Of a DNA stretch of 64,000 bases, positions 5,266 through 60,338 are shown in pieces. The notes under the pieces were generated by a model. That model was not told the DNA's origin and made no database searches. It was given only the letters and a program-made list of their open reading frames with translations. Where the stretch lies: IMG/VR virus record IMGVR_UViG_3300037333_000013, positions 1 through 64,000 of that record. One strand, written 5' to 3'. The stretch's first letter is position 1. The number at the start of each line of letters is the position of its first letter. Both the position numbers and the translations under genes were made by a program. Source of the DNA: a virus.

Positions 5266-5328
5266 TGTGCATTACCACATCCTGGACTATGACCAAACCA
5301 AATATATGCCAGACTATTATATTGGTTT
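5266..5328 (-). ncRNA. Leader RNA motif I, copy A (pseudoknot)
   Basis: Minus strand AAACCAAUAUAA-UAGUCUGGCA-UAUAUUUGGUUU-GGUC-AUAGUCCAG-GA-UGUG-GUAAUG-CACA; loop CUGG pairs with CCAG. Confidence 0.7.
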
Positions 5329-5346
5329 TAGTATTCAATACGCTAT

Positions 5347-5355
5347 AATAATATA
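5347..5355 (-). promoter_or_regulatory. Early (virion RNAP) promoter motif TATATTATT
   Basis: One of 14 intergenic copies of TATATTATT-N4-YGTA; resembles the phiKZ early promoter TATATTAC. Confidence 0.7.
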
Positions 5356-5398
5356 TAGGTAAAAAAAAAGGATACACAATAAATAAAAAAAGAATATT

Positions 5399-5422
5399 CT
5401 TAGTGGTCTAACGACCACTAAG
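5399..5422 (-). terminator. Terminator hairpin after MYG1 gene
   Basis: CTTAGTGGTC-taac-GACCACTAAG followed by T-rich sequence on the minus strand. Confidence 0.65.
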
Positions 5423-5424
5423 TG

Positions 5425-6525
5425 TTAACCATAGATAACTAAATCTATGTAGATTTTCTCCTTTACTGGAATCTTTATTCCTACGACTTCTCCAGGGTAC
5501 GGGACTAAGTCCTGTTCTTTGTAAATACCAAAGAACCCACCCTTGTGAGTGAATATTTGGAATTGAACATTGTGTTCCGAGTCCAATGAGAACTTCCCAC
5601 CAAACTTACCCTCTTCAAGAGGGATTTGCGTTACGCCCCACCCCTCCTGCTTTTTGTCGTAGTTTACGACAAAGTCTGCACGACCAATACAGAACTTTGC
5701 TGGAACGAACCTTTCCCCTTTTTGGATTATGATGAACTTCACCCCATTTACCTCCTTTACAGGAGTCGATGAAGCTAAGTCATCAATCTTCTTTTGGATT
5801 TCCTCCCTCTTTTGTTTATTTTGCTCGGAAACCACCTGAGCTAAACTGTAATCGTCTAACTCGGAGTAGTCCTCAATATATTTTGAGGATAAGTGATTTA
5901 TGAACTTTATCGCATCCTCCGGACCTTTATCCTCCATATTCTGGAGTAACATTACGGTTGCATTAACCGCAACCTTGAAGTTCTTGTCTTGTGTTTCGCC
6001 ATAGACATCTTCGGGGTCGTTCATACCCTGAATCAATTTTATTAGAGGGTGGTCAGCCCTCTGCTCAATCCCACAATCGTGTTTGTCGACGATGTCAACA
6101 AGCCCCTTAATGTATCTACTTACATTAGAGAGAAATGGACCGTCATTCCATGGACATTGCCCAGTTTCACAACTCACAAATAGTGGTCTCGTCAATGCCA
6201 CTAAAATTAGCCCTGCTGAGGACTTCCCATAAAGGTCATCCCCCTCTTTGAATTGATGGTGGTCAAAGCGACCACCGAAAATTTTCCCAACTGGGAACGT
6301 CTGGGACATATAGTCCCCAGAGTATAAAGACACCGAATTGTCTTTATACTCTCCATTGACGTCCACCACGACGTCAAATCCCTCACTAGGGATATCTCTA
6401 CCCCTAGTGATTTTCACATCCACTCTAGGAAATGCTAGCTTGATGAGTGCTATTGCTAGCACCTCATCTGCGTGGAACACACCATTGTGTGTCAAAATAT
6501 TTAGTGTATTTGTTGTGTTAGTCAT
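5425..6525 (-). CDS. MYG1 (UPF0160) family DHH-like exonuclease/hydrolase
   Basis: THNGVFHADEVLA, VVDV.GEY, RFDHHQ, SSAGL and FTHKGGF motifs typical of MYG1. Confidence 0.85.
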   Translation of the reverse strand: MTNTTNTLNILTHNGVFHADEVLAIALIKLAFPRVDVKITRGRDIPSEGFDVVVDVNGEYKDNSVSLYSGDYMSQTFPVGKIFGGRFDHHQFKEGDDLYGKSSAGLILVALTRPLFVSCETGQCPWNDGPFLSNVSRYIKGLVDIVDKHDCGIEQRADHPLIKLIQGMNDPEDVYGETQDKNFKVAVNATVMLLQNMEDKGPEDAIKFINHLSSKYIEDYSELDDYSLAQVVSEQNKQKREEIQKKIDDLASSTPVKEVNGVKFIIIQKGERFVPAKFCIGRADFVVNYDKKQEGWGVTQIPLEEGKFGGKFSLDSEHNVQFQIFTHKGGFFGIYKEQDLVPYPGEVVGIKIPVKEKIYIDLVIYG

Positions 6526-6555
6526 ACTATATCCTTTATGATATTTTAATTATGT

Positions 6556-6613
6556 TCCGAATTACCGGAGAGTGGTCTATTACGCATACAATGAGTGCCA
6601 CACTTCTCATTGC
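6556..6613 (-). ncRNA. Leader RNA motif I, copy B
   Basis: GCAAUGAG-AAGUGUGGCA-CUCAUUGU-AUGCGUA-AUAGACCAC-UC-UCCG-GUAAUU-CGGA; loop GUGG pairs with CCAC. Confidence 0.7.
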
Positions 6614-6655
6614 TATCAATACTCCTAAACGACTAAGAGTAATTCAATACACTAC

Positions 6656-6664
6656 AATAATATA
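6656..6664 (-). promoter_or_regulatory. Early promoter motif
   Basis: TATATTATTgtagTGTA upstream of MYG1. Confidence 0.7.
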
Positions 6665-6704
6665 TAGGTAAAAAAAAAAGGATACACAACGAGTGGTGTG
6701 TGAC

Positions 6705-7289
6705 TCACAGAGTCACTTCTACCACATCGTATCCCATCATTTCCATCAGACCCAAGATACTCATATCTTTATCATTGTATGGTTCACGTACCACGTGACC
6801 ACCGCCAACAGCTATGAGTGTCACATCATCTGATTCCATAGCTTTGATAATCTTTGCTGTCCAGTAGACATCTCTCATAACCATCTCTTTTGTTTCGTCT
6901 GCTGCACCTGCCAACATAATCTTAATTCCCTCATAATTATCATCTTTAAAGAGCGATGCGAATATCCTATCTATACCATTTGGTTCTGCTGGTGCAAAGT
7001 TTTCCTCGCAAGTTTCAAGTCCTTCAGAACCTTTCAGCATATACCACATATCCATTGGATAACTATCTGGTAATCTCTTCATATATGTTAAGATAATGTT
7101 CTCTTTTGTTCTACCCAAATACTTTGATACCTTCTCTGCATAATGGTCTAGAGATACTTCTGTGTAGATTTTGTCAATCCCTACTATTGTCTTCTCTAAG
7201 TCATCTACTTCAAATATCCCAGCGATATGAATCGTAGGTACGATTCTGCCAATTAATTTTCCGTCTTTTTTAATGTCAAAATATTTCAT
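6705..7289 (-). CDS. TraB/GumN-like (TIKI superfamily) protein, paralog 1
   Basis: PTIH, E, MD, GLET, RD..W and IAVGGGHV pattern. True start MKYFDIKKDGK at 7289 (AAAGGA RBS; matches paralog at 43434). Confidence 0.7.
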   Translation of the reverse strand: MKYFDIKKDGKLIGRIVPTIHIAGIFEVDDLEKTIVGIDKIYTEVSLDHYAEKVSKYLGRTKENIILTYMKRLPDSYPMDMWYMLKGSEGLETCEENFAPAEPNGIDRIFASLFKDDNYEGIKIMLAGAADETKEMVMRDVYWTAKIIKAMESDDVTLIAVGGGHVVREPYNDKDMSILGLMEMMGYDVVEVTL

Positions 7290-7329
7290 TTGTTTTATTC
7301 CTTTAAGAATTGTTTTCTTTATAATTTGT

Positions 7330-7393
7330 ATCACATTACTGATTACTGGATTATGAACATACGCATACATAGCACCAGACTAAACTATGTATG
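7330..7393 (-). ncRNA. Leader RNA motif I, copy C
   Basis: CAUACAUAG-UUUAGUCUGGUG-CUAUGUAUG-CGUAUGUUC-AUAAUCCAG-UA-AUCA-GUAAUG-UGAU. Confidence 0.65.
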
Positions 7394-7410
7394 AACCACT
7401 ATTACACGTT

Positions 7411-7419
7411 AATGATATA
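7411..7419 (-). promoter_or_regulatory. Early promoter motif (variant TATATCATT)
   Basis: TATATCATTaacgTGTA at the same position relative to leader and gene as the other copies. Confidence 0.55.
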
Positions 7420-7436
7420 CATACAAAAAATACCAG

Positions 7437-7468
7437 TATGATACAGTGCCATATGGCACTGTATCATA
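7437..7468. terminator. Perfect 32-bp palindrome at gene end
   Basis: TATGATACAGTGCCATATGGCACTGTATCATA overlapping the stop codon of 7464..8120. Confidence 0.65.
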
Positions 7469-8120
7469 GACTAATGTCAATGTGCATCGCTTTAAAGTAT
7501 GCACTTAATGTCTTTGTGGCTTGTGTCTTTGTGACAAATGGTGCGAGTTCACTTTTACTCACTTTACCGTTTTTAAAGAGTAGTCCATTGAGTGCATTAC
7601 TCGCTTGCACATCTCCACCACGCACACCTAGAAACTCATCGAGTGTATTGTTTAGACCAAGTGGTTTCATTACTTGTACTTCTTGCAGTGTAATTCTGCC
7701 TGACGCACTGTTACCTGCTACTTGTCCAGTAATTCTATTCCGAGTCTTTCTATGCTTGTGTACGTTAAAATTCTTTAAGATATGCTGTGATGCTCTACGG
7801 ATAGACATATACATTACGGCATATTCTACCTCAGGTGTATAGACAAAGTCACCTCGCGTAATAGTGAGCTTCTGGTAGATATCAAACCCTAACCATTTTG
7901 CTATATCTACATTTCTATCAAAGTCTAACTCTACTTCACTATCTAATGGAGAGAACAACCTCAACGAGTGTCTACCGCTACGAAATTTCTCTATCATAGA
8001 TTCATAGTCTTTCTTACTCATCTTTGGTAGCTTCTCTTTATAAATCTTTGTGTTAAACCCAGATGGGTCTAACTTTGCTACGACTTCTAAGATAAACTGC
8101 TCTACATCTTTTCTTGCCAT
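7464..8120 (-). CDS. Virion RNA polymerase subunit, beta C-terminal fragment (phiKZ gp96-like)
   Basis: MARKDVEQFIL...NTKIYKE N-terminus; TGQVAGNSASGRITLQE and RGGD motifs equivalent to the RpoB C-terminal GGQR.GEME region. Confidence 0.7.
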   Translation of the reverse strand: MARKDVEQFILEVVAKLDPSGFNTKIYKEKLPKMSKKDYESMIEKFRSGRHSLRLFSPLDSEVELDFDRNVDIAKWLGFDIYQKLTITRGDFVYTPEVEYAVMYMSIRRASQHILKNFNVHKHRKTRNRITGQVAGNSASGRITLQEVQVMKPLGLNNTLDEFLGVRGGDVQASNALNGLLFKNGKVSKSELAPFVTKTQATKTLSAYFKAMHIDISL

Positions 8121-8266
8121 AAGAACGCCTCTTGCTTTCTATCAATTGCTTTGTCCGCAATGAGTACTTTCTTGTCTGCTTGTTTTGTATGTTCATCTAT
8201 GACTTTGTTATCGTTTAAGATAGCAATAATCAAAAATGAAATACTGTATGCTATGAATGCCTTCAT
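8102..8266 (-). CDS. Small membrane protein
   Basis: MKAFIAYSISFLIIAIL single hydrophobic helix. Start moved to 8266 to avoid overlap with the upstream gene. Confidence 0.45.
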   Translation of the reverse strand: MKAFIAYSISFLIIAILNDNKVIDEHTKQADKKVLIADKAIDRKQEAFLWQEKM

Positions 8267-8276
8267 CACTACGCCT

Positions 8277-9035
8277 TTAAAATGGGAGCGGTAAGAGTAC
8301 ATCATCAATAGATGCTCTCTTTGTGACATATGTGGGTTGATTAAACATAGAAGTGAGTACAGCACATACACGAGGGTCAGACTCAAATAGGTCATCACTG
8401 TTCCCTAGTGATACGTAGTGATTCACCTCTGCTTTACCTGTCTCGACATAGTTCTCACTCGATAACATACACCCAATACTATCTCTGTTTGTGCCAATGT
8501 TTAAGTACCTCTCAAATAGGATATGTGTCTTTGAGTCTATAATATAGGTGTCGCGTGTCTCATCACTACCTGTATTGTTCTTCAATGTTGGGAGTGGTTG
8601 AGTATATACAGCAGGTGATGTAATACCATTCAATGTAGCACGCACACAATATCCATCTACCATATAGTCTCTACCAACGACCTTATCAAAGAGTGGCATA
8701 TATAAGAAGTCATTGTACTTCTTATCATAGTAGAGAATTACAGATTGGTCAATAATCTCACTGATAATTTCTGTAATAGGGAAGAACCTATCACCATCAA
8801 AATTATCATCTACTGGGTTTACTGTAATTTTTGCAGATAAATTATCACTACTAGAAACAATGCTAGATTGTGACAAATTATACTCAATTTTGTCTACCGT
8901 TCTTTGTGGTGTAGTGTTATCACCTTTACCTGCGACTTGTGATAAATCTAAGATACTGTAAAACTTCTTAATGGAAGTAGCCACATTTGTTTTGTCATCG
9001 TTGTCTAATGTAAAGACCCTTCTTTCTAGGTTCAT
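8277..9035 (-). CDS. Hypothetical protein
   Basis: 252-aa ORF translationally coupled (ATGA) to the upstream gene. Confidence 0.7.
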   Translation of the reverse strand: MNLERRVFTLDNDDKTNVATSIKKFYSILDLSQVAGKGDNTTPQRTVDKIEYNLSQSSIVSSSDNLSAKITVNPVDDNFDGDRFFPITEIISEIIDQSVILYYDKKYNDFLYMPLFDKVVGRDYMVDGYCVRATLNGITSPAVYTQPLPTLKNNTGSDETRDTYIIDSKTHILFERYLNIGTNRDSIGCMLSSENYVETGKAEVNHYVSLGNSDDLFESDPRVCAVLTSMFNQPTYVTKRASIDDVLLPLPF

Positions 9036-9268
9036 AATCTTCCTCTCTCTTTCATCATTGGTATTGCACTATCTAACCTTGCACAGAGTTCTGACTCTGT
9101 ATCAAAGTCATATGCTAGTAATAACAGAATGTCATTATCGTCTTCTGTTAATAAAGAACGAAACAGACAGTTAATATGTGTTAAGACACTGCGTGTCCTT
9201 GTCCTACTAAGTAGGTTGTCATACCCACTTAGATTATACTTGTTAAGCACGCTTTCTAGATTTTCCAT
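9032..9268 (-). CDS. Hypothetical protein
   Basis: 78-aa ORF with GGAG RBS, in operon after uvsX. Confidence 0.55.
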   Translation of the reverse strand: MENLESVLNKYNLSGYDNLLSRTRTRSVLTHINCLFRSLLTEDDNDILLLLAYDFDTESELCARLDSAIPMMKERGRL

Positions 9269-10700
9269 TCTTGCTCCATTTTTCCTCTAACCACCACGGC
9301 GTATAGATGCCGTGATACATTTCTAAGAGAGAAACGATAGTTAAACACTTCTCTCTATCTCTATTTTCTGGTCGTTCATTATAATGGTCATCGTCCCACC
9401 AGTTACGTGTATTTGTAAGGATATCGTCCCAATCATATCCTTTCTCAATGAGTCCCGTGTAGAGTGTATGTGGGTCAACATAGAGCCCACCACGTTCATA
9501 TACCGGGAAGAACTTCTTGAGTTGGTAAAGGTCGTACCCTATCTGCATTGCTCTAAACAACTTCTTGTTCTTCTTCATTGTTTCTCTTACTGTATGTCGT
9601 GTTACTTTGACGTCTGGTAGGAATACAGATGCAAAGTTAGCAGTTCCGGCTAATGCGAAGTTATTGTTTTTTAAGTTGTATAGATAGGTTACATCTTCCA
9701 ACACACCATCCTCCTGAGAGATAACGACCTCAATAACATTACCAGTACCACCGTGTTTACTACGCAGTGTCTCTAATTTCACAACATATAAATCTTTCTC
9801 AGATTGCTCTACACCACGTTTCACACGATAGTATGGTTGTTTTTCATCATCCTTTAAGATACGCTTACCGACAACTTTCCACATTAACTTTGTCAAATAG
9901 TAGAACTCTTCTGTTACTTTCTTTAAGACTTCACCATCTTTTAAATCATGCAGCTTCTTCATCGGTTTAGAGTATTTATTTTCGTTCATATCATTTGCAG
10001 AACCAACGTGTGCGGTTGTTAAAAAATAGACATTTGGTTTAGATGCTACTGTTGGTATTTGTCCGAGTACTTTTGTCTTAAACGAACCAGCTTTCATAAA
10101 GATAGTGTTTGTGCTTCCATCTTCTGATTTTGACTTATCCATCATATCATCTACTGCTTTTGGGTCAAACTTAGACCAACTATCAATAATAACAGGAAAT
10201 GGCGGTTTAGCCATAACCTTTACACCATTAGAAGAAAATGGTTCGTATAGGTAACTCTTGTCTTTTGCAATGGACTTTAAATACTTCTTAAAGTCACTCC
10301 ACCAGAAGTCTGGGTATATTTTTGTTCTGTCTGTATAGAGTATCGTACTTGCATCTGGGTTGGATATATTAATAAACTCTTTTAAGTCACTGTCAGATAC
10401 GTTAGACATGACGTGGTTTACCCTAGATGGATTGATGTTTGACTCAGAGTCATAAATCATACCGAGTGGTTCGTGTGAATGAACTCGTGTTAAAATCTTT
10501 GCTTGCCAGTAGTAAAGAATGAGAGACTTCCCAACATTCCCTGGCCCAGTACAAACACTAAAGTTTGCAATGCCGCCATTCAGTACCATGTCTCCTCTTG
10601 GTCCCTGTATCCACTCTCCAGCAGCCATATCGAAACCAGCACCCACATTAATGGAGTAGTTTCTATCAGGTGTCTCCAGTGACATTCTTGTTCTAGCCAT
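9243..10700 (-). CDS. uvsX: UvsX/RecA-like recombinase (phiKZ gp152-like)
   Basis: Walker A GPGNVGKS, YDSE, Walker B VIIDS, LTTAHVG, LRSKHGGTG and SQEDG motifs. Start at 10700 (AAAGGA RBS). Confidence 0.85.
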   Translation of the reverse strand: MARTRMSLETPDRNYSINVGAGFDMAAGEWIQGPRGDMVLNGGIANFSVCTGPGNVGKSLILYYWQAKILTRVHSHEPLGMIYDSESNINPSRVNHVMSNVSDSDLKEFINISNPDASTILYTDRTKIYPDFWWSDFKKYLKSIAKDKSYLYEPFSSNGVKVMAKPPFPVIIDSWSKFDPKAVDDMMDKSKSEDGSTNTIFMKAGSFKTKVLGQIPTVASKPNVYFLTTAHVGSANDMNENKYSKPMKKLHDLKDGEVLKKVTEEFYYLTKLMWKVVGKRILKDDEKQPYYRVKRGVEQSEKDLYVVKLETLRSKHGGTGNVIEVVISQEDGVLEDVTYLYNLKNNNFALAGTANFASVFLPDVKVTRHTVRETMKKNKKLFRAMQIGYDLYQLKKFFPVYERGGLYVDPHTLYTGLIEKGYDWDDILTNTRNWWDDDHYNERPENRDREKCLTIVSLLEMYHGIYTPWWLEEKWSKNGKSRKRA

Positions 10701-10766
10701 TTTTGTATCCTTTAAATTGTGTATCTTCAAATGAATAGGTAGAACTCGGAAAAAGAGAAACTATCT

Positions 10767-10793
10767 GTATGTGTGGGAAGTTCCCACACATAC
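10767..10793 (-). terminator. Terminator-like inverted repeat
   Basis: GTATGTGTGGGAA-g-TTCCCACACATAC after the 10801 gene. Confidence 0.6.
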
Positions 10794-10800
10794 TTGTAAC

Positions 10801-12423: not shown

Positions 12424-12449
12424 TTTTTATTCCTTTTATTTATGTTTTT

Positions 12450-12479
12450 GTTAGCTCACTACGTAAGCACAGCAATTCC
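12450..12479 (-). promoter_or_regulatory. Leader motif II, copy 1
   Basis: GGAAUUGCUGU-GCUUAC-gua-GUGAGC-UAAC in the 5' UTR. Confidence 0.5.
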
Positions 12480-12489
12480 TATACATTAC

Positions 12490-12498
12490 AATAATATA
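12490..12498 (-). promoter_or_regulatory. Early promoter motif
   Basis: TATATTATTgtaaTGTA. Confidence 0.7.
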
Positions 12499-12513
12499 CC
12501 AGTAAAAAAAAGC

Positions 12514-12540
12514 ATACAGTATACGCTGTGTATACTGTAT
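12514..12540 (-). terminator. Intrinsic terminator
   Basis: ATACAGTATAC-gctgt-GTATACTGTAT followed by T8 on the minus strand. Confidence 0.7.
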
Positions 12541-12547
12541 AACTATA

Positions 12548-13222
12548 TTACGAAAGTATATTTTCTAGTCTAATCCCATTCATAAATAATAGTAAGGGTT
12601 TATTTAATACTTTAGTATATTCAGCTTGCCTATCTGTATATATGAACTGTTTGCTATCTCTATCATCATAGACTATATTGTTGCATTTACTAAATGAAAA
12701 TTCTGTACAAACAGTAATGGGATACACATAAAATAATGTGCTTACAACATAACAAGTATACTTATCGATAAAGTAAATAGCATCTTCCTTCGTTATAAAT
12801 GATTTAGAATACTTTTCATAAGATAAGTAAGCATTTGTAGACGCCATCATAAACTCTATATTATCTGTTCTAATTAAGTAGATGTACCATCTATCACCAT
12901 TAACATCGTAGTTTTGTGTTTCATACGATTTTGTTAAATCACTGCCGTATTCACGATTGTAATTTTTGCTATCTTTACAGTTACTTATGCCAGTATACTT
13001 TGAAATGAACATATTGGTACCATCAATCAGCTTCTGCTCATTTGTTATACGGATAGAGTCACCATATTTTACTATACCGATTTTACACAACGCTTTATCT
13101 AGCCCATATGGAACTTCTTCATCGTAACAGCCACTATATAATATATCTTCTGTAACGCATGTCAACTTACCAAAGGTTAATTTAATTTCAGTATCGTTAT
13201 CTCTTAATATATTAAAAGTCAT
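12548..13222 (-). CDS. Hypothetical protein, partial paralog of 10801..12423
   Basis: RWYIYLIRTDNIEFMMAS versus KWYVYLIRSEKMNFMMVS. Confidence 0.65.
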   Translation of the reverse strand: MTFNILRDNDTEIKLTFGKLTCVTEDILYSGCYDEEVPYGLDKALCKIGIVKYGDSIRITNEQKLIDGTNMFISKYTGISNCKDSKNYNREYGSDLTKSYETQNYDVNGDRWYIYLIRTDNIEFMMASTNAYLSYEKYSKSFITKEDAIYFIDKYTCYVVSTLFYVYPITVCTEFSFSKCNNIVYDDRDSKQFIYTDRQAEYTKVLNKPLLLFMNGIRLENILS

Positions 13223-13239
13223 GTTTAGTACCTATTTCA

Positions 13240-13422
13240 TTAGTTCTTTGTCGCTTCATTCACGATAATGGCAAACATTAATGCTATTGAAAACAAACTA
13301 ATGACTTCAAAGATTGTATGTTGCATCTCACTTACTCGTGTTTCGTCAGGTACAAATACACTTAGAATAAATATACATAGCAGCACAGCAATAAGTTTGT
13401 AATTTTTGTCTTGGATGTTCAT
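13240..13422 (-). CDS. Small two-TM membrane protein
   Basis: Two hydrophobic segments; AAGGA RBS. Confidence 0.6.
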   Translation of the reverse strand: MNIQDKNYKLIAVLLCIFILSVFVPDETRVSEMQHTIFEVISLFSIALMFAIIVNEATKN

Positions 13423-13436
13423 ATTTTTCCTTTTAA

Positions 13437-15026: not shown

Positions 15027-15027
15027 T

Positions 15028-15709: not shown

Positions 15710-15737
15710 TATCTATCCTTAATGTTTTGTTCTTTTT

Positions 15738-15763
15738 ATTAACCTATCAGGCACAGCAGTTCC
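15738..15763 (-). promoter_or_regulatory. Leader motif II, copy 2
   Basis: GGAACUGCUGU-GCCU-gau-AGGU-UAAU. Confidence 0.5.
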
Positions 15764-15773
15764 TATACGTAAT

Positions 15774-15782
15774 AATAATATA
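15774..15782 (-). promoter_or_regulatory. Early promoter motif
   Basis: TATATTATTattaCGTA. Confidence 0.7.
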
Positions 15783-15814
15783 TAAGTAAATAGTTATCAC
15801 TTTTTGTAAAGAAA

Positions 15815-15955
15815 CAAAAAAAGAAAGACTCCTAGTGGTACACACCACTAGAAGCGAAACAGGACTACCAGTACATATGGTGCATTGAATTACTGTTAAA
15901 AAAGGAGAAAGGTCGTTTGCCTGTTTACTCACATATGTACTGGTGCTATGGTAGC
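15815..15955 (-). ncRNA. Putative stand-alone small RNA with pseudoknot and anti-SD loop
   Basis: Bounded by a promoter motif (15961-15969) and a terminator (15829-15854 plus U-tract). 13-bp stem 15867-15879/15932-15944; 7-bp pseudoknot 15857-15863/15920-15926; no credible ORF. Confidence 0.6.
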
Positions 15956-15960
15956 ATTGA

Positions 15961-15969
15961 AATAATATA
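15961..15969 (-). promoter_or_regulatory. Early promoter motif driving the putative sRNA
   Basis: TATATTATTtcaaTGCTA. Confidence 0.55.
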
Positions 15970-19450: not shown

Positions 19451-19488
19451 AATTTCTCCTTTATTGTAGTGGCTTATGAGACCATATG

Positions 19489-19516
19489 GTTAGCCTATTG
19501 TTAGACATAGCAATTC
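19489..19516 (-). promoter_or_regulatory. Leader motif II, copy 3
   Basis: GAAUUGCUAU-GUCUA-acaa-UAGGC-UAAC. Confidence 0.5.
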
Positions 19517-19561
19517 AATTACACCATAATAATATATGGGTAAAAAAAAAAGGCATACACA
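19512..19561 (-). repeat. 50-bp promoter cassette repeat (49/50 identical to 60343..60392), includes the early promoter at 19528-19536
   Basis: AATTCAATTACACCATAATAATATAT(G/A)GGTAAAAAAAAAAGGCATACACA. Confidence 0.85.
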
Positions 19562-43433: not shown

Positions 43434-44030
43434 CTAGATGACCACCTCCACAACCTCATAACCCAGTGTCTTCACTAAGTCTATGAGATTCATATCACCT
43501 TTTGTTAAAGGGTCTCTAATAATGTGGGCAGCACCAAACACCATTGCTGGAATTGTTCCAGCTTCGAGTTCTTCTATAACCTTAATGTGCCACCCATAAT
43601 CTCTTTTATAGATGGACTCATATCCTTTGGACATAACGTCCAGGATATATTTTATCTCTTTGAGATTATTCTCTTTAAATAGTTTACTAAACTTCTCTAT
43701 AATTTTCATTGTCCTCTCATTCATCTCCATTTCTGGCATGTCTGTGTATAAAGGTTCAATTCCACTATGTCTTCTTCTCATATAGAGATAGTCCATTGGT
43801 AACTTGTCATCATCCCCCCACAGGATTTTGTCTACTATTTCTCCCTCTGATTTCCCAGATACTTTTGATGCGTATTTTGCAATCTCATTTATGTCTGACT
43901 CTAATATAATCTTATTTGTGCCAACTAAGGACTTTTCTATATCTTCTTCAGACACAATCCCTGGGATATGGATTGATGGGATAAATCTCCCTTGAAGTTT
44001 TCCGTCTTTTTTAATGTCAAAGTATACCAT
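43434..44030 (-). CDS. TraB/GumN-like protein, paralog 2
   Basis: YFDIKKDGKL.GR..PSIH, PMD, RD..W, VFGAAH, GYEVVEV; clear paralog of 6705..7289. Confidence 0.7.
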   Translation of the reverse strand: MVYFDIKKDGKLQGRFIPSIHIPGIVSEEDIEKSLVGTNKIILESDINEIAKYASKVSGKSEGEIVDKILWGDDDKLPMDYLYMRRRHSGIEPLYTDMPEMEMNERTMKIIEKFSKLFKENNLKEIKYILDVMSKGYESIYKRDYGWHIKVIEELEAGTIPAMVFGAAHIIRDPLTKGDMNLIDLVKTLGYEVVEVVI

Positions 44031-44060: not shown

Positions 44061-44118
44061 TCCGCATTACCGGTTACAGGACTATGAACACTTGAGTATT
44101 GCCTGACTATATACTCAA
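44061..44118 (-). ncRNA. Leader RNA motif I, copy D
   Basis: UUGAGUAUA-UAGUCAGGCA-AUACUCAA-GUGUUC-AUAGUCCUG-UAA-CCG-GUAAUG-CGG; loop CAGG pairs with CCUG. Confidence 0.7.
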
Positions 44119-44128: not shown

Positions 44129-44137
44129 AATAATATA
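44129..44137 (-). promoter_or_regulatory. Early promoter motif
   Basis: TATATTATT preceded by a T-tract. Confidence 0.65.
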
Positions 44138-44153: not shown

Positions 44154-44181
44154 ATACACAGTACCACGTGGTACTGTGTAT
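44154..44181 (-). terminator. Intrinsic terminator (perfect 28-bp palindrome)
   Basis: ATACACAGTACCACGTGGTACTGTGTAT followed by T9 on the minus strand. Confidence 0.7.
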
Positions 44182-50473: not shown

Positions 50474-50482
50474 AATAATATA
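50474..50482 (-). promoter_or_regulatory. Early promoter motif upstream of nvRNAP genes
   Basis: TATATTATTtaaaTGTA. Confidence 0.7.
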
Positions 50483-50516
50483 TAAGTATAAAAAGACATT
50501 AAAAATAGGATAGATA

Positions 50517-50813: not shown

Positions 50814-50817
50814 CACC

Positions 50818-50843
50818 TCCCATAGGCACACGTGCCTATGGGA
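50818..50843. terminator. Palindrome at convergent junction
   Basis: TCCCATAGGCAC-ac-GTGCCTATGGGA. Confidence 0.6.
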
Positions 50844-52206: not shown

Positions 52207-52217
52207 AATACCTCCTC

Positions 52218-53717: not shown

Positions 53718-55228
53718 TATATTTCCTTTATGTGTTTGATATATCTGGCGAAGTCATTTCGCACATCTGGTGTTTGTCCCATATAGTCTTCTTGTACGTC
53801 TCTATATGGTTCTTCTAGTAGGTATGTATAGTGACCCAAGTTAATAGAGTCTGTCATCGCATTGATGACCTCTGTTATCTTGTCATCTTTACTCTTCTTT
53901 ACATATACTCTATACTCATTCGATAGCTCTTCTACTAGCTCTCTCTTTACAGAATATAATCGTATCGGCTTTGTAATTCTACCTTTACCTATCGTATATG
54001 TCGTATCCACTGACATCAACATATATTTTGCCATCGGTGCATGACCATTCTCTATTGCGTAAGCAGCAAACACAACAGCCATATTTACAACTTGTTCCCT
54101 CTCTAGTACAGGATAAGCTAATGGACTATCGTACGGTAATCCTAATATACGTTTTGTCATAGTGAGTTTTAATAAATTCACAGTGAACGGATGTAAGATA
54201 TGTGTACTGTCAAACATTGGTTCAGCCATCTTCAAGAATTTCTCAACAAGAGACATATCTTTTATGCCGAAGTCTTTTGCTAGTCTTGTTATATCACGAT
54301 ACTGTTTACGCATCACCTCGACTTTACCAGGGCTATATGGTGTTGCTTGTCTATATGTCTCAAAGATAGACTGTTCACTATCAGCATCACCAGTAGAAGA
54401 TGGTCCTTTCACAGTAAACTTATGCTCTGATTTCTTATTGCTGTTGAAGATGTTAGACACCAAGTAGTACATTCCACCAATGATGTTGCTATGTGATGGG
54501 GGGTTCTTAATGGTTGCATAAGTTGGGAATGTCTTGAATAAAAGCGTCCCTAACACATACTCTGTCACCTCTGTTGAACCAATGTTCTCTACCATAGTAG
54601 AGACTCGCATTCTATTCTCTTCTCCACCAGACGTCTTATCAATGTGTGATGTGATGAAACGTTCTAGTCTCAACATTGGCTCAGTCTGTGTGAACTCTTT
54701 ATACCCTCTCTTTAGGATAATGAACAATGCTTCGTGTGTGTATTGCTTAATCAACATATCCGTTAGTGGTATCAGCACTTTAGAAGCTATGACGATTGTC
54801 ATTAAGTCTATAAACTCACTCTTTAAATAAGTCTGGTCTCTAGACTCAATAGCGTTCTTCTCGTTATCCATATTGAATGTCTCTTTTAGTCTATCTGGTG
54901 CAGTCATTCCCTCCCTGAGTATAAACTCTTTAATCACAGTGATATCCATATAAGATAGTAACTCTCTCATATAGTATCCTGCTTTTTGTATATCAGCACC
55001 TTTGGATAACTCTTTCCACATCTGCTTGTAGACAGTCTCTATTCTATCGTTCAATTTATAGTGTTCTACAAACCGATTAAATAGTTCCAGCATCTCTGGA
55101 TTCTTTAGTAGTTTACTCTGGCTCTTTGCTGTAAATGAAGCGATAGAGAACAATGTTTCTGGATTATCGTTCAGATACGCCATATGTGAACTGTTCTCCC
55201 TTCCTAAAGCTAGTGTTATCAAATTCAC
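53717..55228 (-). CDS. Non-virion RNAP sigma-like specificity subunit (phiKZ gp68-like)
   Basis: RDQTYLKSEFIDL...LIP matches the recalled gp68 RPDQTYLKHDYINL...LVP; S.FE.Y motif. Confidence 0.75.
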   Translation of the reverse strand: MNLITLALGRENSSHMAYLNDNPETLFSIASFTAKSQSKLLKNPEMLELFNRFVEHYKLNDRIETVYKQMWKELSKGADIQKAGYYMRELLSYMDITVIKEFILREGMTAPDRLKETFNMDNEKNAIESRDQTYLKSEFIDLMTIVIASKVLIPLTDMLIKQYTHEALFIILKRGYKEFTQTEPMLRLERFITSHIDKTSGGEENRMRVSTMVENIGSTEVTEYVLGTLLFKTFPTYATIKNPPSHSNIIGGMYYLVSNIFNSNKKSEHKFTVKGPSSTGDADSEQSIFETYRQATPYSPGKVEVMRKQYRDITRLAKDFGIKDMSLVEKFLKMAEPMFDSTHILHPFTVNLLKLTMTKRILGLPYDSPLAYPVLEREQVVNMAVVFAAYAIENGHAPMAKYMLMSVDTTYTIGKGRITKPIRLYSVKRELVEELSNEYRVYVKKSKDDKITEVINAMTDSINLGHYTYLLEEPYRDVQEDYMGQTPDVRNDFARYIKHIKEI

Positions 55229-55281
55229 ATTTTCTCCTTTCTGAATTCGTTAGTTCTATTAGCTACTTAGAACTACACCAA

Positions 55282-55290
55282 AATAATATA
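55282..55290 (-). promoter_or_regulatory. Early promoter motif upstream of the gp68-like operon
   Basis: TATATTATTttggTGTA. Confidence 0.7.
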
Positions 55291-55303
55291 CAAATTAAAA
55301 AAT

Positions 55304-55333
55304 ATTACATGTAGACCGAAGTCTACATGTAAT
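55304..55333 (-). terminator. Terminator after major capsid gene
   Basis: ATTACATGTAGAC-cgaa-GTCTACATGTAAT (UUCG loop on the minus strand) followed by T6. Confidence 0.75.
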
Positions 55334-55337
55334 TTAC

Positions 55338-57326
55338 TTAAGCGATTGCTTGGTAGTATCTAACGTTTTTCTTCGCATACTCTGCGATATCTGGTAACTC
55401 GATATCTAAGAAGATTGGAAGTGTGACGTGGTGTTTACCATAAGATACAGTAGTGATTTTTGATTTGTTATTATCAATACGTTCTGCAACAGCAACGTGT
55501 GATTTAACAAATGAACCTACTCTAAACCCAGCTTTCATTGGGTCACTCGGTGCACCAGATGTACCAATAGCCATTACAGCTCTTTTTGAGAACACTGAAG
55601 ATTCGTTTGACTCTAACTTAACAGGCATCCCGTTCACAGTAATGTCTGAACCAATAGCAGCTACGAGTGCCGGTGGAACGATAAGGACTGGATGATATGC
55701 AATACCACTAGCTTTCGCTACTCTGTTATATCTTGTTCTTGTTGTCATGTCTGCAAAGTGAACACCTAAGAAGTCTTCGAATGAAGTCTTGAATGCTTCT
55801 CTTTTGTCAGTTGACTTATCAGCATCTACCTGGTCATTGACTGAGAATGTTACTTTGTCGTAGTATGAATCAACAACTGCCATAAGTGGATATACGAATG
55901 CTGTTGGTGTTGTTGGTTCTCCACCCCCTACATATGATGCCATCTCTGCAAGTGTATTTTTGATTTTGATAATACCCCTTACAGTTGCTGAGCTGTATGC
56001 TAAAGAGATGAGTGCATTAACATCTAAGTTATCATTTATGTTCCCACCATTAAGAATGCTAGTATGTACACTCGCAACACTGAATGGCTCAATACCTAAC
56101 AGCTTTGTATGGTTCTTACTTACAAGTACAGGTCCCTCTTTTGCTAATGCTAAGTCTGAGATAGTTGCATCGTAGTATACACCTTTTGGCACAATAGTAG
56201 CGACAGCATCGACAATATCTTTTACTGCGGCATCATCTAATGAAATGATGTTTCCAGCTAAATCTCTGATAGCAACAAGTTTGATAGATGTTACGTTTGT
56301 AAGCAGTGGTGTTTTTAAGTTACCAGAACCAGAAACTTGGAACTCTAACTCTGCATTATATGTCATAGGCAATGTATTAAGGTTCTCAGTCTCAGTACCG
56401 TCATACTTTGTCATTGTTGCTAAGTTGAACGCACGTGTCCCACGAATGTTAAGGATAAGACCTTGTTCTTCTCCTTCTCCTTCTCCAGCAATGAATGTTG
56501 TACCATTCATACCCGCAAGATTGAATTTGATATAATCGATAACATCATTATCATCATCATCTTTTGTTGTAATCTCACAAGCAATAGCTTCTACTGATGG
56601 TAGTGTTGCGAGGATTGTTTCTGTTGTTGGAACACCCTCTGTAAGCATTACATCTGTCATAGACTCTGCAATAAGGTCTACATCTACACCTAGCTCTACT
56701 GGTGCTGTTTTGACTTCTTCTTTCGTTTGTGGGTGTACGATTGTTTGCTCGAAATCCGATACAGTATGACCATCATCATTCACAACTGGAATAAGTCTTA
56801 AATCATTGACTGCAAGTGGTCCTTCTACATCATACATCGCATTGATAATGGCGACTGATTCTGGTTTCACTGCTGTTCTTGTTCTACGTGTAGGACGTTC
56901 GATGTATGTTGTTGCAACAGATACTTTCATACCAGCTATGGCCGGGTCTACTTCAACTGTTGGGAAGAAAGCTTCAATAGAGCTATCTTGGTGTCTCTCA
57001 GAAGCATTTACTTCAAAGTTTACTGCGATGATAGCTGCAGGGTCACTATTGTCAAAGTTTTCTGTATCAATCCCTTTGAGACTTAACTCTTTGTCACCAA
57101 CAGCAATTTCATTCTCACCAACCTTTAACGGCTCAGAACCAACTTTTAACCCTTTTGCGAGAGAAAATACTTTCTTTGCTACTTCTTGTCTTCTCTGTGA
57201 ATTTGATTCACTTTCTGCATCCATCGTTGTTACATCAGCACCTGCAATGAGAGAAACTGCTTCATCTTCATCATGTACCGAGCCAATAGAGACAGCTTTG
57301 AGGTCTTCGAATCTTTCTTTTAACAT
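55338..57326 (-). CDS. Major capsid protein (phiKZ gp120-like)
   Basis: TENFD, QD...EAFFPTV.VDP, TAP...G...DL and HH..LPIF motifs; next to DnaB as in phiKZ gp118-120. Confidence 0.8.
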   Translation of the reverse strand: MLKERFEDLKAVSIGSVHDEDEAVSLIAGADVTTMDAESESNSQRRQEVAKKVFSLAKGLKVGSEPLKVGENEIAVGDKELSLKGIDTENFDNSDPAAIIAVNFEVNASERHQDSSIEAFFPTVEVDPAIAGMKVSVATTYIERPTRRTRTAVKPESVAIINAMYDVEGPLAVNDLRLIPVVNDDGHTVSDFEQTIVHPQTKEEVKTAPVELGVDVDLIAESMTDVMLTEGVPTTETILATLPSVEAIACEITTKDDDDNDVIDYIKFNLAGMNGTTFIAGEGEGEEQGLILNIRGTRAFNLATMTKYDGTETENLNTLPMTYNAELEFQVSGSGNLKTPLLTNVTSIKLVAIRDLAGNIISLDDAAVKDIVDAVATIVPKGVYYDATISDLALAKEGPVLVSKNHTKLLGIEPFSVASVHTSILNGGNINDNLDVNALISLAYSSATVRGIIKIKNTLAEMASYVGGGEPTTPTAFVYPLMAVVDSYYDKVTFSVNDQVDADKSTDKREAFKTSFEDFLGVHFADMTTRTRYNRVAKASGIAYHPVLIVPPALVAAIGSDITVNGMPVKLESNESSVFSKRAVMAIGTSGAPSDPMKAGFRVGSFVKSHVAVAERIDNNKSKITTVSYGKHHVTLPIFLDIELPDIAEYAKKNVRYYQAIA

Positions 57327-57384
57327 ATATAAATCCTTTAATGTCTGTGTATTATGTATAGTCGACTACACATCAAGTAATAAG

Positions 57385-57729
57385 CTAATCGTTCTGTGAC
57401 ATCATAATAAGATAGCATCGTTTTAACTCGCCTTTTTTCAGTGCCCGTATCTCTTCTATCTTACGATATACCTCTATGCTCATACCTCCATCACCAATCA
57501 TATTTTTATCCATTTCAAGTAGTGATTCATGAATAATTAGATTCACACCGTCTGTACTCAATAAGTTCTCATTTTCTGGTTTCTGCTTAAGTATACTTTT
57601 TGCACTCATCACGTTCCTTACATACGTTGCTGCATTGTCTATATGTTTCCTATCATACTTATTCAACTTCTCTATGTCGAAGTTTAGTTCTCTCATCAAG
57701 CCATACATACTCTTAGGTATCACTAACAT
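57385..57729 (-). CDS. Hypothetical protein (gp119 position)
   Basis: 114-aa ORF between DnaB and capsid genes. Confidence 0.6.
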   Translation of the reverse strand: MLVIPKSMYGLMRELNFDIEKLNKYDRKHIDNAATYVRNVMSAKSILKQKPENENLLSTDGVNLIIHESLLEMDKNMIGDGGMSIEVYRKIEEIRALKKGELKRCYLIMMSQND

Positions 57730-57798
57730 ATTTATCCTTTTCTATTATTCAGTTAATCTCCATCTGATTCTGTTGTTTGAAAATTTAAAGGATAAACA

Positions 57799-59322
57799 AT
57801 GAATTCTGTTACACTTTTAGTAGATTGTATTCTACTGTTACTCTTAGAGAGTAAAGCAAATTTAGAGAACGAGAGTAGCCAGATGATACAGAAGTTACTA
57901 GATTATCAAGAGTCAACTTCTACACGATGGAATGTATCGGATGACAGTATCACGATGAAACTCTCTACCATTATTGCATCACTCTTATCTTCTGTAAATA
58001 AAGGTGAACCTATTGATGTGGATAGAACGGTGCGTATCTTAAAGATTGAAACTGCTACTACGAGTGATTTAGAGGGTGATGAAGATTTAAGAGATACCAT
58101 CTTAGATATGATTAAGTCTGTTGAGTCACTAGATGGTGATGAACTATACAGATACATTGATAATATTAGAGCTTCTGTTTCCGACGCTTATAACAATGAA
58201 GCACTAAAACGTTTCTTGCAGTCACAAACTATGGATATGAATAAACGAAACAACAGCAAGAGTTTTAGAGATAGGTTAGAGAGCTTGAGAGTTTACGTGG
58301 ATAAACTTGAAGATGGTTCTGGAGATAAAGATGACGCTATTCTATTTGAACTCGATTTGGACGACTTATCAAAACCAGAAGTGGTTGAGAAGCTTGAGTC
58401 TAGTATTGTTACAAAACATATCTTTAGAACTGGTTGGAAGGGCATTAACAGAATGTATCAGGGTGGTAGACGTGTTCCAGAGTTCTCTTCCGTTGGTGCA
58501 TTAACACACAACTATAAGTCTGGCTATCATCTCTCTATCTTTGCGAGTATTGTATTGTACAATAAACCTATTATGAGGGATAAAGGAAAGCCACTGGCGG
58601 TATACTTTAGCTTCGAAGATGATGTTATGCCTATCTTTGAGTTCTTATATCAATTGCTATACATTACTGAGACAGGTTCTGTACTAAAAGAGATTTCTGT
58701 TAAACCTGTTGATATGGTGCGAGACGTTGCTAAGAAGTTGCAGGCTAAGGGATTTGCTGTAAAGATTATTAAAATTGACCCTACAAGATGGTCTTATGTA
58801 TCATTTGTAAATAAGGTGAAGCGTTATATCGCACAGGGATACGACCCACAGATTGTCGATGTAGACTACTTTGAAAAACTCCCAACCACTGGCATTGATG
58901 CAAATGGTCCTATGGGATACGATAAGAAAGTACTTGTAAGGAAAGTCAGAAACTTCCTAGCTAGTATTGACGCGAGTGGGAGTACTCCGTGGCAGCTCTC
59001 TTCTAAGGCATCAGACTTAAAGAAAGATGGATTGACAGATAAAGACTTCTTATCATTCGTTGCACCAAAGCAATATTATCAAGGGAGTGCTACGTTAGGA
59101 AATGAAATGGATTTAGAGACATTTACCAATATCGTAGAGACAAACGACAATGGGTGTTGGCTTAATATTCATATGGGTAAACATAAAATACCGACAGTTG
59201 TAGATAAGAAGTACAAAAGTTACTTCCTACCATATCCACAAAATGGACCAATACCATTTGATATAGAGTTAGAAAATGAAATTGGTTCATATGATGTAAA
59301 AACACCAAATCCATTCTACTAA
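57799..59322 (+). CDS. dnaB: Replicative DnaB-like helicase (phiKZ gp118-like)
   Basis: TGWKGINRM.QGG, variant Walker A ALTHNYKS, SFED, VDY, TPWQLS, E.DLE, GKH. Confidence 0.85.
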   Translation: MNSVTLLVDCILLLLLESKANLENESSQMIQKLLDYQESTSTRWNVSDDSITMKLSTIIASLLSSVNKGEPIDVDRTVRILKIETATTSDLEGDEDLRDTILDMIKSVESLDGDELYRYIDNIRASVSDAYNNEALKRFLQSQTMDMNKRNNSKSFRDRLESLRVYVDKLEDGSGDKDDAILFELDLDDLSKPEVVEKLESSIVTKHIFRTGWKGINRMYQGGRRVPEFSSVGALTHNYKSGYHLSIFASIVLYNKPIMRDKGKPLAVYFSFEDDVMPIFEFLYQLLYITETGSVLKEISVKPVDMVRDVAKKLQAKGFAVKIIKIDPTRWSYVSFVNKVKRYIAQGYDPQIVDVDYFEKLPTTGIDANGPMGYDKKVLVRKVRNFLASIDASGSTPWQLSSKASDLKKDGLTDKDFLSFVAPKQYYQGSATLGNEMDLETFTNIVETNDNGCWLNIHMGKHKIPTVVDKKYKSYFLPYPQNGPIPFDIELENEIGSYDVKTPNPFY

Positions 59323-59331
59323 GGAAATCCT

Positions 59332-60084
59332 ATGTTTCTATTTAAAGACATTATTACACCAGACGTCTGTCGTAGACACACAGAGTTTCTCTATGTATAT
59401 GGTGATAATCTAAAGCACACAGGAACGGGTGGTCAAGCTATTATACGCGATGAGCCAAACAGTTTCGGAATACCAACAAAACATGAACCTACTCGTAGTC
59501 CAGCGGCATACTTCTCCGATAGAAGTGATGAAGTATCTGTTGTTGAGAGATATTTAAAAGAGCTTGATGAGATGAGTGATGGTGGTAGAGTCATTGTACT
59601 TCCTACTAACCCTGTTGGCACTGGCCTCGCTAAACTAGATGAGTGGTCCCCAAAGATAGCTAAAATGATACGCGATTGGTGGAGTAGCAAACCTAGATTA
59701 TACACGTCTAATTTCGCTAGTATAAAGAAAGACAGGTCTATTAGGGTGATTCCAATCACACGGTTTACACCTAAGTGGATTGATTGTGAATTTGAAATGA
59801 AAGAGTTATCTCCTAAATCACTCACTTTATTAAAGTATAAGAAAGGTGAGATTAACGATAAAGAGTATATCTATGCGTTTGATGATGTATTACGGGAGTT
59901 ACTACCACTAAACGTCATTGAGACGTGCATTGATAAAGATAGTGCGTTTACGTGCTTCTGTGGTAAGGGTGCGTTCTGTCATAGGCATCTAGTTGCTGAA
60001 TGGATTGAACGTGAGTTAGATATCATCATTAATGAGTTTGGGTATGAAAAAACAAAAAGAAAACTAGGTAAGCTGAGTAGATAG
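59332..60084 (+). CDS. Two-domain protein: macro-like VYGDN domain fused to a DUF488-like domain
   Basis: N-half YVYGDNL...GGQA.IR.EPN.FGIPTK...GTGLA; C-half YTSNF...P.W...LSP...C.C....FCHRHLVAEW. Confidence 0.7.
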   Translation: MFLFKDIITPDVCRRHTEFLYVYGDNLKHTGTGGQAIIRDEPNSFGIPTKHEPTRSPAAYFSDRSDEVSVVERYLKELDEMSDGGRVIVLPTNPVGTGLAKLDEWSPKIAKMIRDWWSSKPRLYTSNFASIKKDRSIRVIPITRFTPKWIDCEFEMKELSPKSLTLLKYKKGEINDKEYIYAFDDVLRELLPLNVIETCIDKDSAFTCFCGKGAFCHRHLVAEWIERELDIIINEFGYEKTKRKLGKLSR

Positions 60085-60104
60085 GGATTAATCCCTATCT
60101 ACTC
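60075..60104. terminator. Perfect 30-bp palindrome at convergent junction
   Basis: GAGTAGATAGGGATTAATCCCTATCTACTC. Confidence 0.65.
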
Positions 60105-60249
60105 TCTTCTTCATCATCTGACTTATCAGAACCTTTCCATTGACAAACGTTGTCTGATGTGAACCTCTAGGAACCCACCCACCATCAACAGCCTCCTTTA
60201 GTCGTTTATTAAATTTCTCTATTGTGGTTGTCAATAATTGATATTCCAT
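60088..60249 (-). CDS. Small DUF1737-like protein (53 aa)
   Basis: Not in the ORF track. MEYQLLTTTIEKFNKRLKEAVDGGWVPRGSH...SQMMKK; AAAGGA RBS, own promoter and leader. Confidence 0.65.
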   Translation of the reverse strand: MEYQLLTTTIEKFNKRLKEAVDGGWVPRGSHQTTFVNGKVLISQMMKKRVDRD

Positions 60250-60279
60250 AATTTATTCCTTTATTATATTAAATATTAT

Positions 60280-60338
60280 TCTGCATTACCAGATACAGGT
60301 CTATGTCTTCATACTATAATGCCTGACTATTATAGTAT
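60280..60338 (-). ncRNA. Leader RNA motif I, copy E
   Basis: AUACUAUAA-UAGUCAGGCA-UUAUAGUAU-GAAGAC-AUAGACCUG-UA-UCUG-GUAAUG-CAGA. Confidence 0.7.

Follow-up and report, generated by a model that had tools for sequence, protein, structure and literature searches.

A pseudoknotted leader RNA on six early genes of a phiKZ-like phage

The first 64,000 nucleotides of the IMG/VR virus record IMGVR_UViG_3300037333_000013 (hereafter the window; the whole record comprises 164,667 bp) contain five copies of an RNA element of ~60 nt with about 20 conserved nucleotides, and a sixth full copy lies elsewhere in the record. Each copy combines a hairpin (P1), a pseudoknot formed by the P1 loop and a second short hairpin (P3), and each is located in the 5' leader of an early gene. 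Six otherwise unrelated early accessory genes carry this same leader element and therefore form one post-transcriptional regulon. The element represents a new family of RNA whose general kind is known, i.e. a cis-acting phage leader knot in a mobile regulatory cassette, and we tentatively suggest, without holding this with confidence, that it functions as a translational operator or enhancer that is read by a co-evolving macromolecular partner.

Architecture of the leader element

The first-pass annotation of this DNA had proposed five dispersed elements, and all five read on the minus strand as it described them; a regular-expression search over the whole record finds exactly these five, which are organized as follows.

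5266-5328, minus strand: copy 1; pseudoknot 5309-5312 (CUGG) with 5282-5285 (CCAG); AUAGU at 5286-5290; 67.7 bits
5276-5279 with 5266-5269, minus strand: P3 of copy 1; loop GUAAUG at 5270-5275
6556-6616, minus strand: copy 2; pseudoknot 6598-6601 (GUGG) with 6572-6575 (CCAC); AUAGA at 6576-6580; 57.4 bits
6566-6569 with 6556-6559, minus strand: P3 of copy 2; loop GUAAUU
7330-7393, minus strand: copy 3; pseudoknot 7375-7378 (CUGG) with 7346-7349 (CCAG); AUAAU at 7350-7354; P3 AUCA/UGAU with loop GUAAUG; P1 loop ending in U instead of C; 57.8 bits
44061-44118, minus strand: copy 4; pseudoknot 44102-44105 (CAGG) with 44077-44080 (CCUG); AUAGU at 44081-44085; P3 (A)CCG/CGG(A) with loop GUAAUG; 68.5 bits
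60280-60338, minus strand: copy 5; pseudoknot 60322-60325 (CAGG) with 60296-60299 (CCUG); AUAGA at 60300-60304; P3 UCUG/CAGA with loop GUAAUG; 81.7 bits

P1 is a hairpin of 8-12 bp with arms of a different sequence in each copy, and its loop reads AGU-NNGG-C/U, in which NNGG is exactly complementary to the downstream CCNN in all five copies. The 3' half proposed in the annotation, consisting of AUA(G/A)N, CCNN, P3 and the loop GUAAU(G/U), stands with a refinement: its total length does not vary among the copies (ATARN, then 4, 2 and 4 nt, GUAAUK and 4 nt), and the gap before P3, previously given as 2-3 nt, is always 2 nt. P3 comprises four positions, which in copy 4 consist of 3 bp and an A.A opposition, and the linker between P1 and (C)AUA(G/A)N has a length of 4-9 nt.

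The number of copies had to be raised from five to six. The sixth full copy is located outside the window at genome positions 117033-117094 on the minus strand and was detected by means of a listing of early promoters across the whole genome together with a looser descriptor of the element. Its P1 loop reads UUGU-CACG-C and its downstream strand AUAGU-CGUG, and the pseudoknot (CACG/CGUG) is thus kept through a G-C to C-G swap where the other five copies show no variation. The fold has the topology of an H-type pseudoknot: the three nucleotides AGU cross the 4-bp second helix, 1-2 nt lead back to P1, a strand of 9-14 nt ending in CAUAGN runs along P1, and the P3 hairpin follows 2 nt later.

Evidence for a selected RNA fold

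Covariation, model retrieval and shuffle controls all support the proposal that P1, the pseudoknot and P3 constitute a selected RNA fold. A loose descriptor matches the real genome six times, each time on the minus strand, compared to a mean of 0.175 per genome in 40 dinucleotide-shuffled genomes. A first covariance model, for which copy 5 and its two orthologs (see below) served as the sole input, returned copies 4, 1, 6, 2 and 3 as its next-best genome matches (E 5e-6 to 0.07), with noise beginning at E 0.6. In the refined model R2, which was rebuilt from seven aligned sequences, the six copies score 56-82 bits and the next genome match 12 bits, a gap from which we conclude that the genome holds exactly six full copies.

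The alignment was produced by the model of a single copy type followed by realignment; the variable P1 arms could not be aligned by MAFFT. In this model-made alignment, to which the pseudoknot was added by hand, 96.7% of the pair cells are standard pairs versus 68.4% in shuffles, changes on both sides occur in 16 of 18 pairs, pseudoknot included, and none of 500 shuffles reaches any of five covariation measures. Sliding the registers by 1-3 columns leaves 25-46% of the cells paired. The alignment was fitted to P1 and P3 and, therefore, favours those two helices; the pseudoknot is outside the model and is 100% paired, with covariation in three of its four pairs, including the G-C to C-G change in copy 6. 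Moreover, the stems include G.U pairs, which would turn into C.A on the opposite strand, and the fold is, thus, specific to the transcribed strand.

Other readings of parts of the element were tried and rejected. Sequestration of the Shine-Dalgarno (SD) sequence by the CCNN strand is inconsistent among the copies and impossible in copy 6; a P2 helix of the type found in pistol ribozymes is seen in no copy but copy 1, by chance; a register shift that turns the P3 loop into a GNRA tetraloop breaks covarying pairs; and a kissing interaction between the P3 loop GUAAU and an AUUAC near the 5' end fails in copies 3 and 4, in which AUUAC is absent. Similarly, the loop reads GGC and not the GGA of a CsrA-type loop, CAUAG is not an embedded late promoter (ATAG is present in only 3 of about 17 late-gene upstream regions), and ARAGORN finds no cloverleaf of a tRNA-like fold.

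Distribution of the element

The DNA had been ascribed to a jumbo phage. The phage is phiKZ-like, but its record of 164.7 kb falls below the 200-kb line for the term jumbo, with the reservation that the contig may be incomplete. The record has a G+C content of 36%, its genes include those for a major capsid protein of the phiKZ type (PF25620, E 4e-44; window 55338-57326, minus strand) and for a split multisubunit RNA polymerase subunit, and ARAGORN finds no tRNA or tmRNA in all of its 165 kb. By sequence comparison, the phage lineage appears very isolated: a megablast search of the region against phage records gives no match, tblastn of the capsid protein against phages gives one match (26% identity, Burkholderia phage FLC9), no homolog of the capsid protein is found in IMG/VR, and a word-seeded search of 5.8 billion proteins at E<=1e-20 recovers only the protein itself.

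As anticipated in the first-pass annotation, the element does not match an RNA family in Rfam 15, which has no match in the 64-kb window at gathering thresholds. With the five leaders as queries and a threshold of E<=10, two chance matches are obtained (mir-5583 with 20 bits, 80 needed; bxd_5 with 13 bits, 50 needed). The families covered include pistol, twister, hammerhead, HDV-like, preQ1-I/II/III, SAM-II/V, ZTP, fluoride and guanidine-III.

IMG/VR, the JGI metagenomes and GTDB were scanned for the exact pattern. Strict and broad pattern scans of IMG/VR yield false matches and no true copy; in GTDB, with one genome for each of 185,579 prokaryote species, none of 37 pattern loci is real by covariance model. 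Among the 66 loci in the JGI metagenomes two are real. One of these contigs, L082, derives from the same phage (99.5% identity); the other, L045, derives from a relative (~67% DNA identity and about 70% protein identity) and contains an ortholog of copy 5 that scores 77.9 bits. Two further short contigs of the L045-type relative, L185 and L250, were recovered through protein look-ups. R2 finds no copy in the whole AR9, phiKZ and FLC9 records or in contig L022, which encodes a MYG1 homolog with 41% identity. As far as the searched collections show, the element would thus be confined to one phage lineage.

Within this lineage the element is strikingly stable. Around the copy 5 ortholog of L045, promoter and leader are ~93% identical compared to ~55-60% for the terminator region and the coding sequence. 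In L250, two partial leaders are nearly identical to those of the phage, namely the 3' part of the leader of copy 2 and the first half of element copy 1, although the MYG1 proteins are only 71% identical, and L185, which begins inside the copy 4 ortholog, has GUG/CAU in P3 instead of CCG/CGG. The near-identity of the leaders amid diverged flanks and proteins indicates that the element is under strong purifying selection.

These comparisons bear on the idea that the element is a new self-cleaving ribozyme that processes the 5' leader. A small, multi-copy and phage-borne RNA with a pseudoknot and about 20 conserved nucleotides would suit a ribozyme, and the closest candidate is pistol (Harris et al. 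2015, PMC4604425), which is also small and phage-associated, in which the P1 loop likewise pseudoknots with a segment just 5' of P3, and which the order P1 loop, pseudoknot, P3 hairpin resembles. However, the pistol pseudoknot has 6 bp rather than 4 bp, and P2 and the 2-nt cleavage junction after P3 are missing here, so that a defining feature of pistol is lacking: on inspection, a segment after P3 complementary to the linker/AUAG region is not present in more than one copy. Conversely, the element has a long P1 and an invariant P3 loop, which is dispensable in pistol. Given that neither the pistol covariance model nor any other ribozyme model in Rfam matches, and that the fixed distance to the start codon described below is unexpected for a ribozyme, we regard this idea as highly improbable.

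Early promoters and cassette organization

Across the whole genome, ~20 sites consist of a T-run followed by TATATTATT, nearly all of them on the minus strand, and in 18 of 20 TATATTATT sites a G is found after six more bases. In AR9 the early consensus is AAATATATATTAT-(6N)-G+1, in which the +1 position has been mapped, and transcripts of phiKZ and phiR1-37 likewise begin 6 nt past the consensus (PMC5312081). The early promoters of phiKZ consist of an extended -10 box and an upstream T-rich element, and the 5' untranslated regions (UTRs) behind them are mostly 31-40 nt long (PMC8244752). The predicted promoters of the element cassettes have the form TATATTAT-6N-G and are, judged by this sequence, of the type used by the AR9/phiKZ virion RNA polymerases. 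Sigma-70-like sites are not enriched (8 found, 11.4 expected). The promoters and the hairpins preceding them in the window are listed here together with the predicted transcription start sites (TSS).

5348-5355, minus strand: early promoter box TATATTAT of copy 1; TSS at G 5341
6657-6664, minus strand: early promoter box of copy 2; TSS 6650
7412-7419, minus strand: early promoter box of copy 3; TSS 7405
44130-44137, minus strand: early promoter box of copy 4; TSS 44123
60360-60367, minus strand: early promoter box of copy 5; TSS 60353
5399-5422, minus strand: intrinsic-terminator-like hairpin with T-run, immediately preceding the promoter of copy 1
7437-7468, minus strand: equivalent terminator-like hairpin
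44154-44181, minus strand: equivalent terminator-like hairpin
60386-60413, minus strand: equivalent terminator-like hairpin

By the AR9/phiKZ rule, the TSS are placed 5-34 nt upstream of P1, which puts the element inside the transcript, between early promoter and ribosome-binding site, as the annotation had it. The six leaders are 93-125 nt long by this rule. Copy 2, in which 34 nt separate the TSS from P1, has the longest leader (125 nt), and its stretch upstream of P1 (window 6617-6650, minus strand) includes a hairpin of its own, ACUCUUAG...UUAGGAGU. A mini-hairpin of 11-13 nt opens the transcript at +1 in copies 1, 5 and 6 and, less clearly, in copy 2.

In the five copies other than copy 2, P1 starts 5-15 nt from the TSS, and most early leaders of the phage contain some hairpin, namely that of the class A leaders described below, as would be the case if the knot were a passive stabilizer of the mRNA, i.e. 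a mechanical barrier against 5'-end-dependent or 5'-3' host nucleases that acts without a specific partner. Such a barrier would have no need for the invariant unpaired AGU, C, AUAG and GUAAUG, for a conserved hairpin loop or for a fixed distance to AUG. Moreover, the small +1 hairpin, which is the common device for shielding a 5' end, already precedes P1 in four copies, suggesting that protection of the 5' end does not need the knot, and in copy 2 another hairpin and 34 nt come before P1. We therefore consider passive stabilization unlikely.

The predicted +1 sequence at all TATATTATT sites, GUA(A/U)U (e.g. window positions 5341, 6650, 7405 and 60353), matches the pentamer GUAAU of the invariant P3 loop.

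The T-run of each upstream terminator-like hairpin merges with the promoter, and the location of such a hairpin directly before each promoter implies that the units are terminator-promoter-leader-gene cassettes. This organization is relevant to a role of the element in transcription, in which the promoter-proximal RNA would modify elongation, pausing or termination by the virion RNA polymerase in the manner of HK022 put or lambda nut. The put RNAs of HK022 are two-stem-loop structures directly downstream of early promoters that act in cis on the host RNA polymerase to suppress terminators. Here, too, an RNA with two stem-loops lies right after early promoters, intrinsic terminators bound the cassettes and the +1 sequence recurs as the P3 loop. 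However, each cassette is equipped with a promoter and a terminator of its own, read-through would be of no evident use in copies 1 and 5, which face convergent genes, and the constant spacing between element and AUG is left unexplained. A put-like function is, thus, very unlikely.

The remaining early promoters of the phage are followed by a different, simpler hairpin leader or by none. A second leader family, which we refer to as class A, has a flank of the type G(C/U)UGUG, a short hairpin of varying sequence and then YUAAC; it follows the same early promoter, precedes other early genes, and mostly goes with a strong AAGGAG SD sequence. Its members are located as follows.

12440-12490 of the window, minus strand: class A leader
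15715-15775 of the window, minus strand: class A leader
19460-19528 of the window, minus strand: class A leader
75120-75194 of the genome, minus strand: class A leader
97180-97236 of the genome, minus strand: class A leader
159590-159646 of the genome, minus strand: class A leader

In addition, a perfect 13-bp hairpin at window 60075-60104, between the convergent copy 5 gene and a 250-aa gene on the plus strand, resembles a bidirectional terminator; the same 30 bp are found in L082.

The closest parallel to the cassettes is provided by the promoter-early stem-loop (PeSL) cassettes of the T4-type phages RB49 and phi1, in which a terminator stem-loop, an early promoter and an SD sequence are repeated before accessory and ORFan genes, and in which relatives differ by whole cassettes (Arbiol et al. 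2010, PMC2839356). In the relative studied here, an extra cassette consisting of a terminator, an early promoter, a class A leader and an 84-aa gene separates the MYG1 gene from the cassette of copy 1 (L250:1035-1631). PeSL units differ in using sigma-70 promoters instead of a virion RNA polymerase type promoter and in that their stem-loop is the terminator; they lack a leader RNA, and the modules described here add a covarying pseudoknotted leader downstream of the TSS. The PeSL-like architecture and the extra cassette of the relative could be taken to mean that the repeats have no RNA function of their own, being a recombination or regulatory module of mobile promoter-terminator cassettes with incidental hairpins. 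Recombination modules, however, keep sequence and not pairing; here the P1 sequences differ entirely and three helices, including the pseudoknot, are kept paired by compensatory changes. An absence of RNA function is, therefore, barely credible.

Position relative to the ribosome-binding site and downstream genes

In copies 1-6 the last nucleotide of P3 is located 30, 30, 40, 30, 30 and 28 nt from the AUG, and in two orthologs the distance is 28 and 30 nt. The spacer sequences have diverged despite this near-constant length; they are A/U-rich, and spacer and SD sequence are mostly unpaired in predicted folds. The footprint of a bound 30S subunit on the mRNA begins at roughly -35 relative to the start codon, and this places the folded module at the upstream edge of the footprint. 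All six copies have a weak SD sequence, AAGGA(A/U), and none has GGAG, which is present in 12 of the 19 other early genes; a hypergeometric calculation by hand gives C(13,6)/C(25,6) = 0.0097 for this bias, a value to be read with the shared ancestry of the copies in mind, which makes them non-independent. Among the predicted folds, no alternative structure common to the six leaders was found, including pairing of the element with the SD sequence.

The genes behind the five copies had been described as one hypothetical gene, a MYG1 gene, two TraB genes and a DUF1737-like gene, and these assignments agree with ours, the last of them as a weak match. For copy 3, the gene start is the SD-preceded ATG at 7289.

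4810-5235, minus strand: gene behind copy 1; 141 aa, no family
5425-6525, minus strand: gene behind copy 2; MYG1-family (DHH-type) exonuclease homolog, 366 aa, PF03690, E 4.3e-18
6705-7289, minus strand: gene behind copy 3; TraB/GumN-like, 194 aa, PF01963, E 1e-4, below the curated cut-off
43434-44030, minus strand: gene behind copy 4; TraB/GumN-like paralog, 198 aa, Atlas structural match to TraB/GumN clusters (template modelling score, TM, 0.73)
60088-60249, minus strand: gene behind copy 5; 53 aa, weak DUF1737 match, E 2.8e-3, below the cut-off
115802-117004 of the genome, minus strand: gene behind copy 6; Suv3-like SF2 helicase, 400 aa, Suv3 DEXQ-box domain PF22527, E 3e-10

The MYG1 3'-5' exonuclease and the Suv3-type helicase are homologs of RNA-decay enzymes of the eukaryote or organelle type and make up an unusual pair for a phage.

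A riboswitch, in which a metabolite or signalling nucleotide would stabilize the knot and in that way change expression of the six genes, would be in line with the short 4-bp pseudoknot, the strictly conserved junction nucleotides and the domain size of roughly 60 nt, all in the style of preQ1-I and SAM-II, and with the fact that two of the regulated genes encode nucleic-acid enzymes (the MYG1/DHH-type exonuclease and the Suv3-like helicase). On the other hand, the riboswitch models of Rfam give no match even at a threshold of E<=10, the leaders have neither a conserved terminator nor an alternative pairing that sequesters the SD sequence, the downstream genes are heterogeneous, and the element is found in one phage lineage only, the exact pattern being absent as a real copy from the genomes of 185,579 prokaryote species. 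On balance, a riboswitch seems distinctly unlikely.

A possible gene-less relative of the element

A possible divergent relative of the element that lacks a gene is present in the window.

15806-15955, minus strand: possible divergent, gene-less relative; early promoter box ending at 15961, terminator at 15816-15854

This RNA of ~130 nt has no open reading frame (ORF) and lies between an early promoter and a terminator. It has a P1 of 13 bp with a loop that opens AGU-AAACAGG-CA, and UAGU-CCUGUUU follows directly 3' of the stem, giving a 7-bp pseudoknot; the flanks AGU, CA and UAGU are the same as in the leader motif. The P3/GUAAUG hairpin is missing, and the covariance models do not detect this RNA. 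Its minimum free energy is -40 kcal/mol (z -3.4). The large loop contains the exact reverse complement of 16 nt at the start of the copy 6 leader and also an anti-SD-like CUCCUUU. The plus strand of 15806-15955 reads as a degenerate inverted promoter-leader-SD unit with a 30-codon ORF, and the reverse-complement part could equally be a relic of such an inverted module. If the gene-less knot carrier is real, it would, as a matter of speculation, fit a decoy for a leader-binding factor.

Along these lines, it is conceivable but somewhat unlikely that the element represents a new riboswitch or ribozyme class of a deeply branching phiKZ-like lineage or the operator of a phage Csr-like system in which the RNA at 15806-15955 acts as the decoy.

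Discussion

Combining the covariation data with the position of the element and its distribution, we tentatively favor the reading that the knot is a translational operator or enhancer. The invariant unpaired nucleotides, the fixed position next to a weak ribosome-binding site, the heterogeneous genes and the narrow lineage together fit this better than a metabolite sensor. In this model, (i) the knot would be transcribed by the virion RNA polymerase within early 5' UTRs of 93-125 nt; (ii) it would fold into a module at the 5' edge of the ribosome-binding region, ending about 30 nt before the AUG; (iii) a putative macromolecular partner, which may be an RNA-binding protein of the phage or else the 30S subunit, would recognize the conserved unpaired nucleotides of the module; and (iv) this partner would govern the start of translation at the neighbouring ribosome-binding site, which is unstructured and A/U-rich and has a weak SD sequence, possibly much as the T4 gene 32 pseudoknot nucleates binding of gp32 on its own leader.

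Four points weigh against this model. The covariation derives mainly from paralogs because only two related phages carry the element. The spacing in copy 3 is 40 nt. The constant spacing and the shared SD type could have been inherited by duplication of one promoter-leader module rather than selected. Finally, by analogy, a 4-bp pseudoknot flanked by invariant unpaired nucleotides would also be typical of riboswitch knots that are stabilized by a ligand.

With respect to mechanism, the operator of T4 gene 32 appears to be the nearest precedent for the translational operator or enhancer suggested here. In the T4 leader, too, an H-type pseudoknot is followed by an unstructured A/U-rich tract that leads into an AAGGA-type SD sequence. 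The two are without detectable homology, and a search of the gene 32 leader with R2, run with filters off, gives no match; Rfam has no model for gene 32 (PMC10690425). T4 gene 32 is a single autoregulated gene, in contrast to the six genes and the extra invariant GUAAUG hairpin observed here, and none of the six downstream genes encodes a recognisable single-stranded DNA-binding protein. Long 5' UTRs behind the same kind of virion RNA polymerase early promoter are also found in AR9, for which a motif shared among early UTRs was predicted and translational control suggested (Lavysh et al. 2017, PMC5312081). For phiKZ-like phages, structured leaders of this kind are not known to have been described; UTR elements, riboswitches and ribozymes go unmentioned in a 2026 review of jumbo phages.

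To our knowledge, few structured leaders of phages have real covariation behind them. The interest of the element described here rests on the quality of the covariation, on the six-gene early regulon and on the ease of in vitro tests: at ~60 nt it is testable entirely in vitro, with copy 6 as a natural compensatory mutant of the pseudoknot. The regulon sits on transcripts that, by their predicted promoters, would be made by the virion polymerase and would thus be the very first messages of infection, and it includes two enzymes of RNA metabolism, a MYG1-type exonuclease and a Suv3-like helicase.

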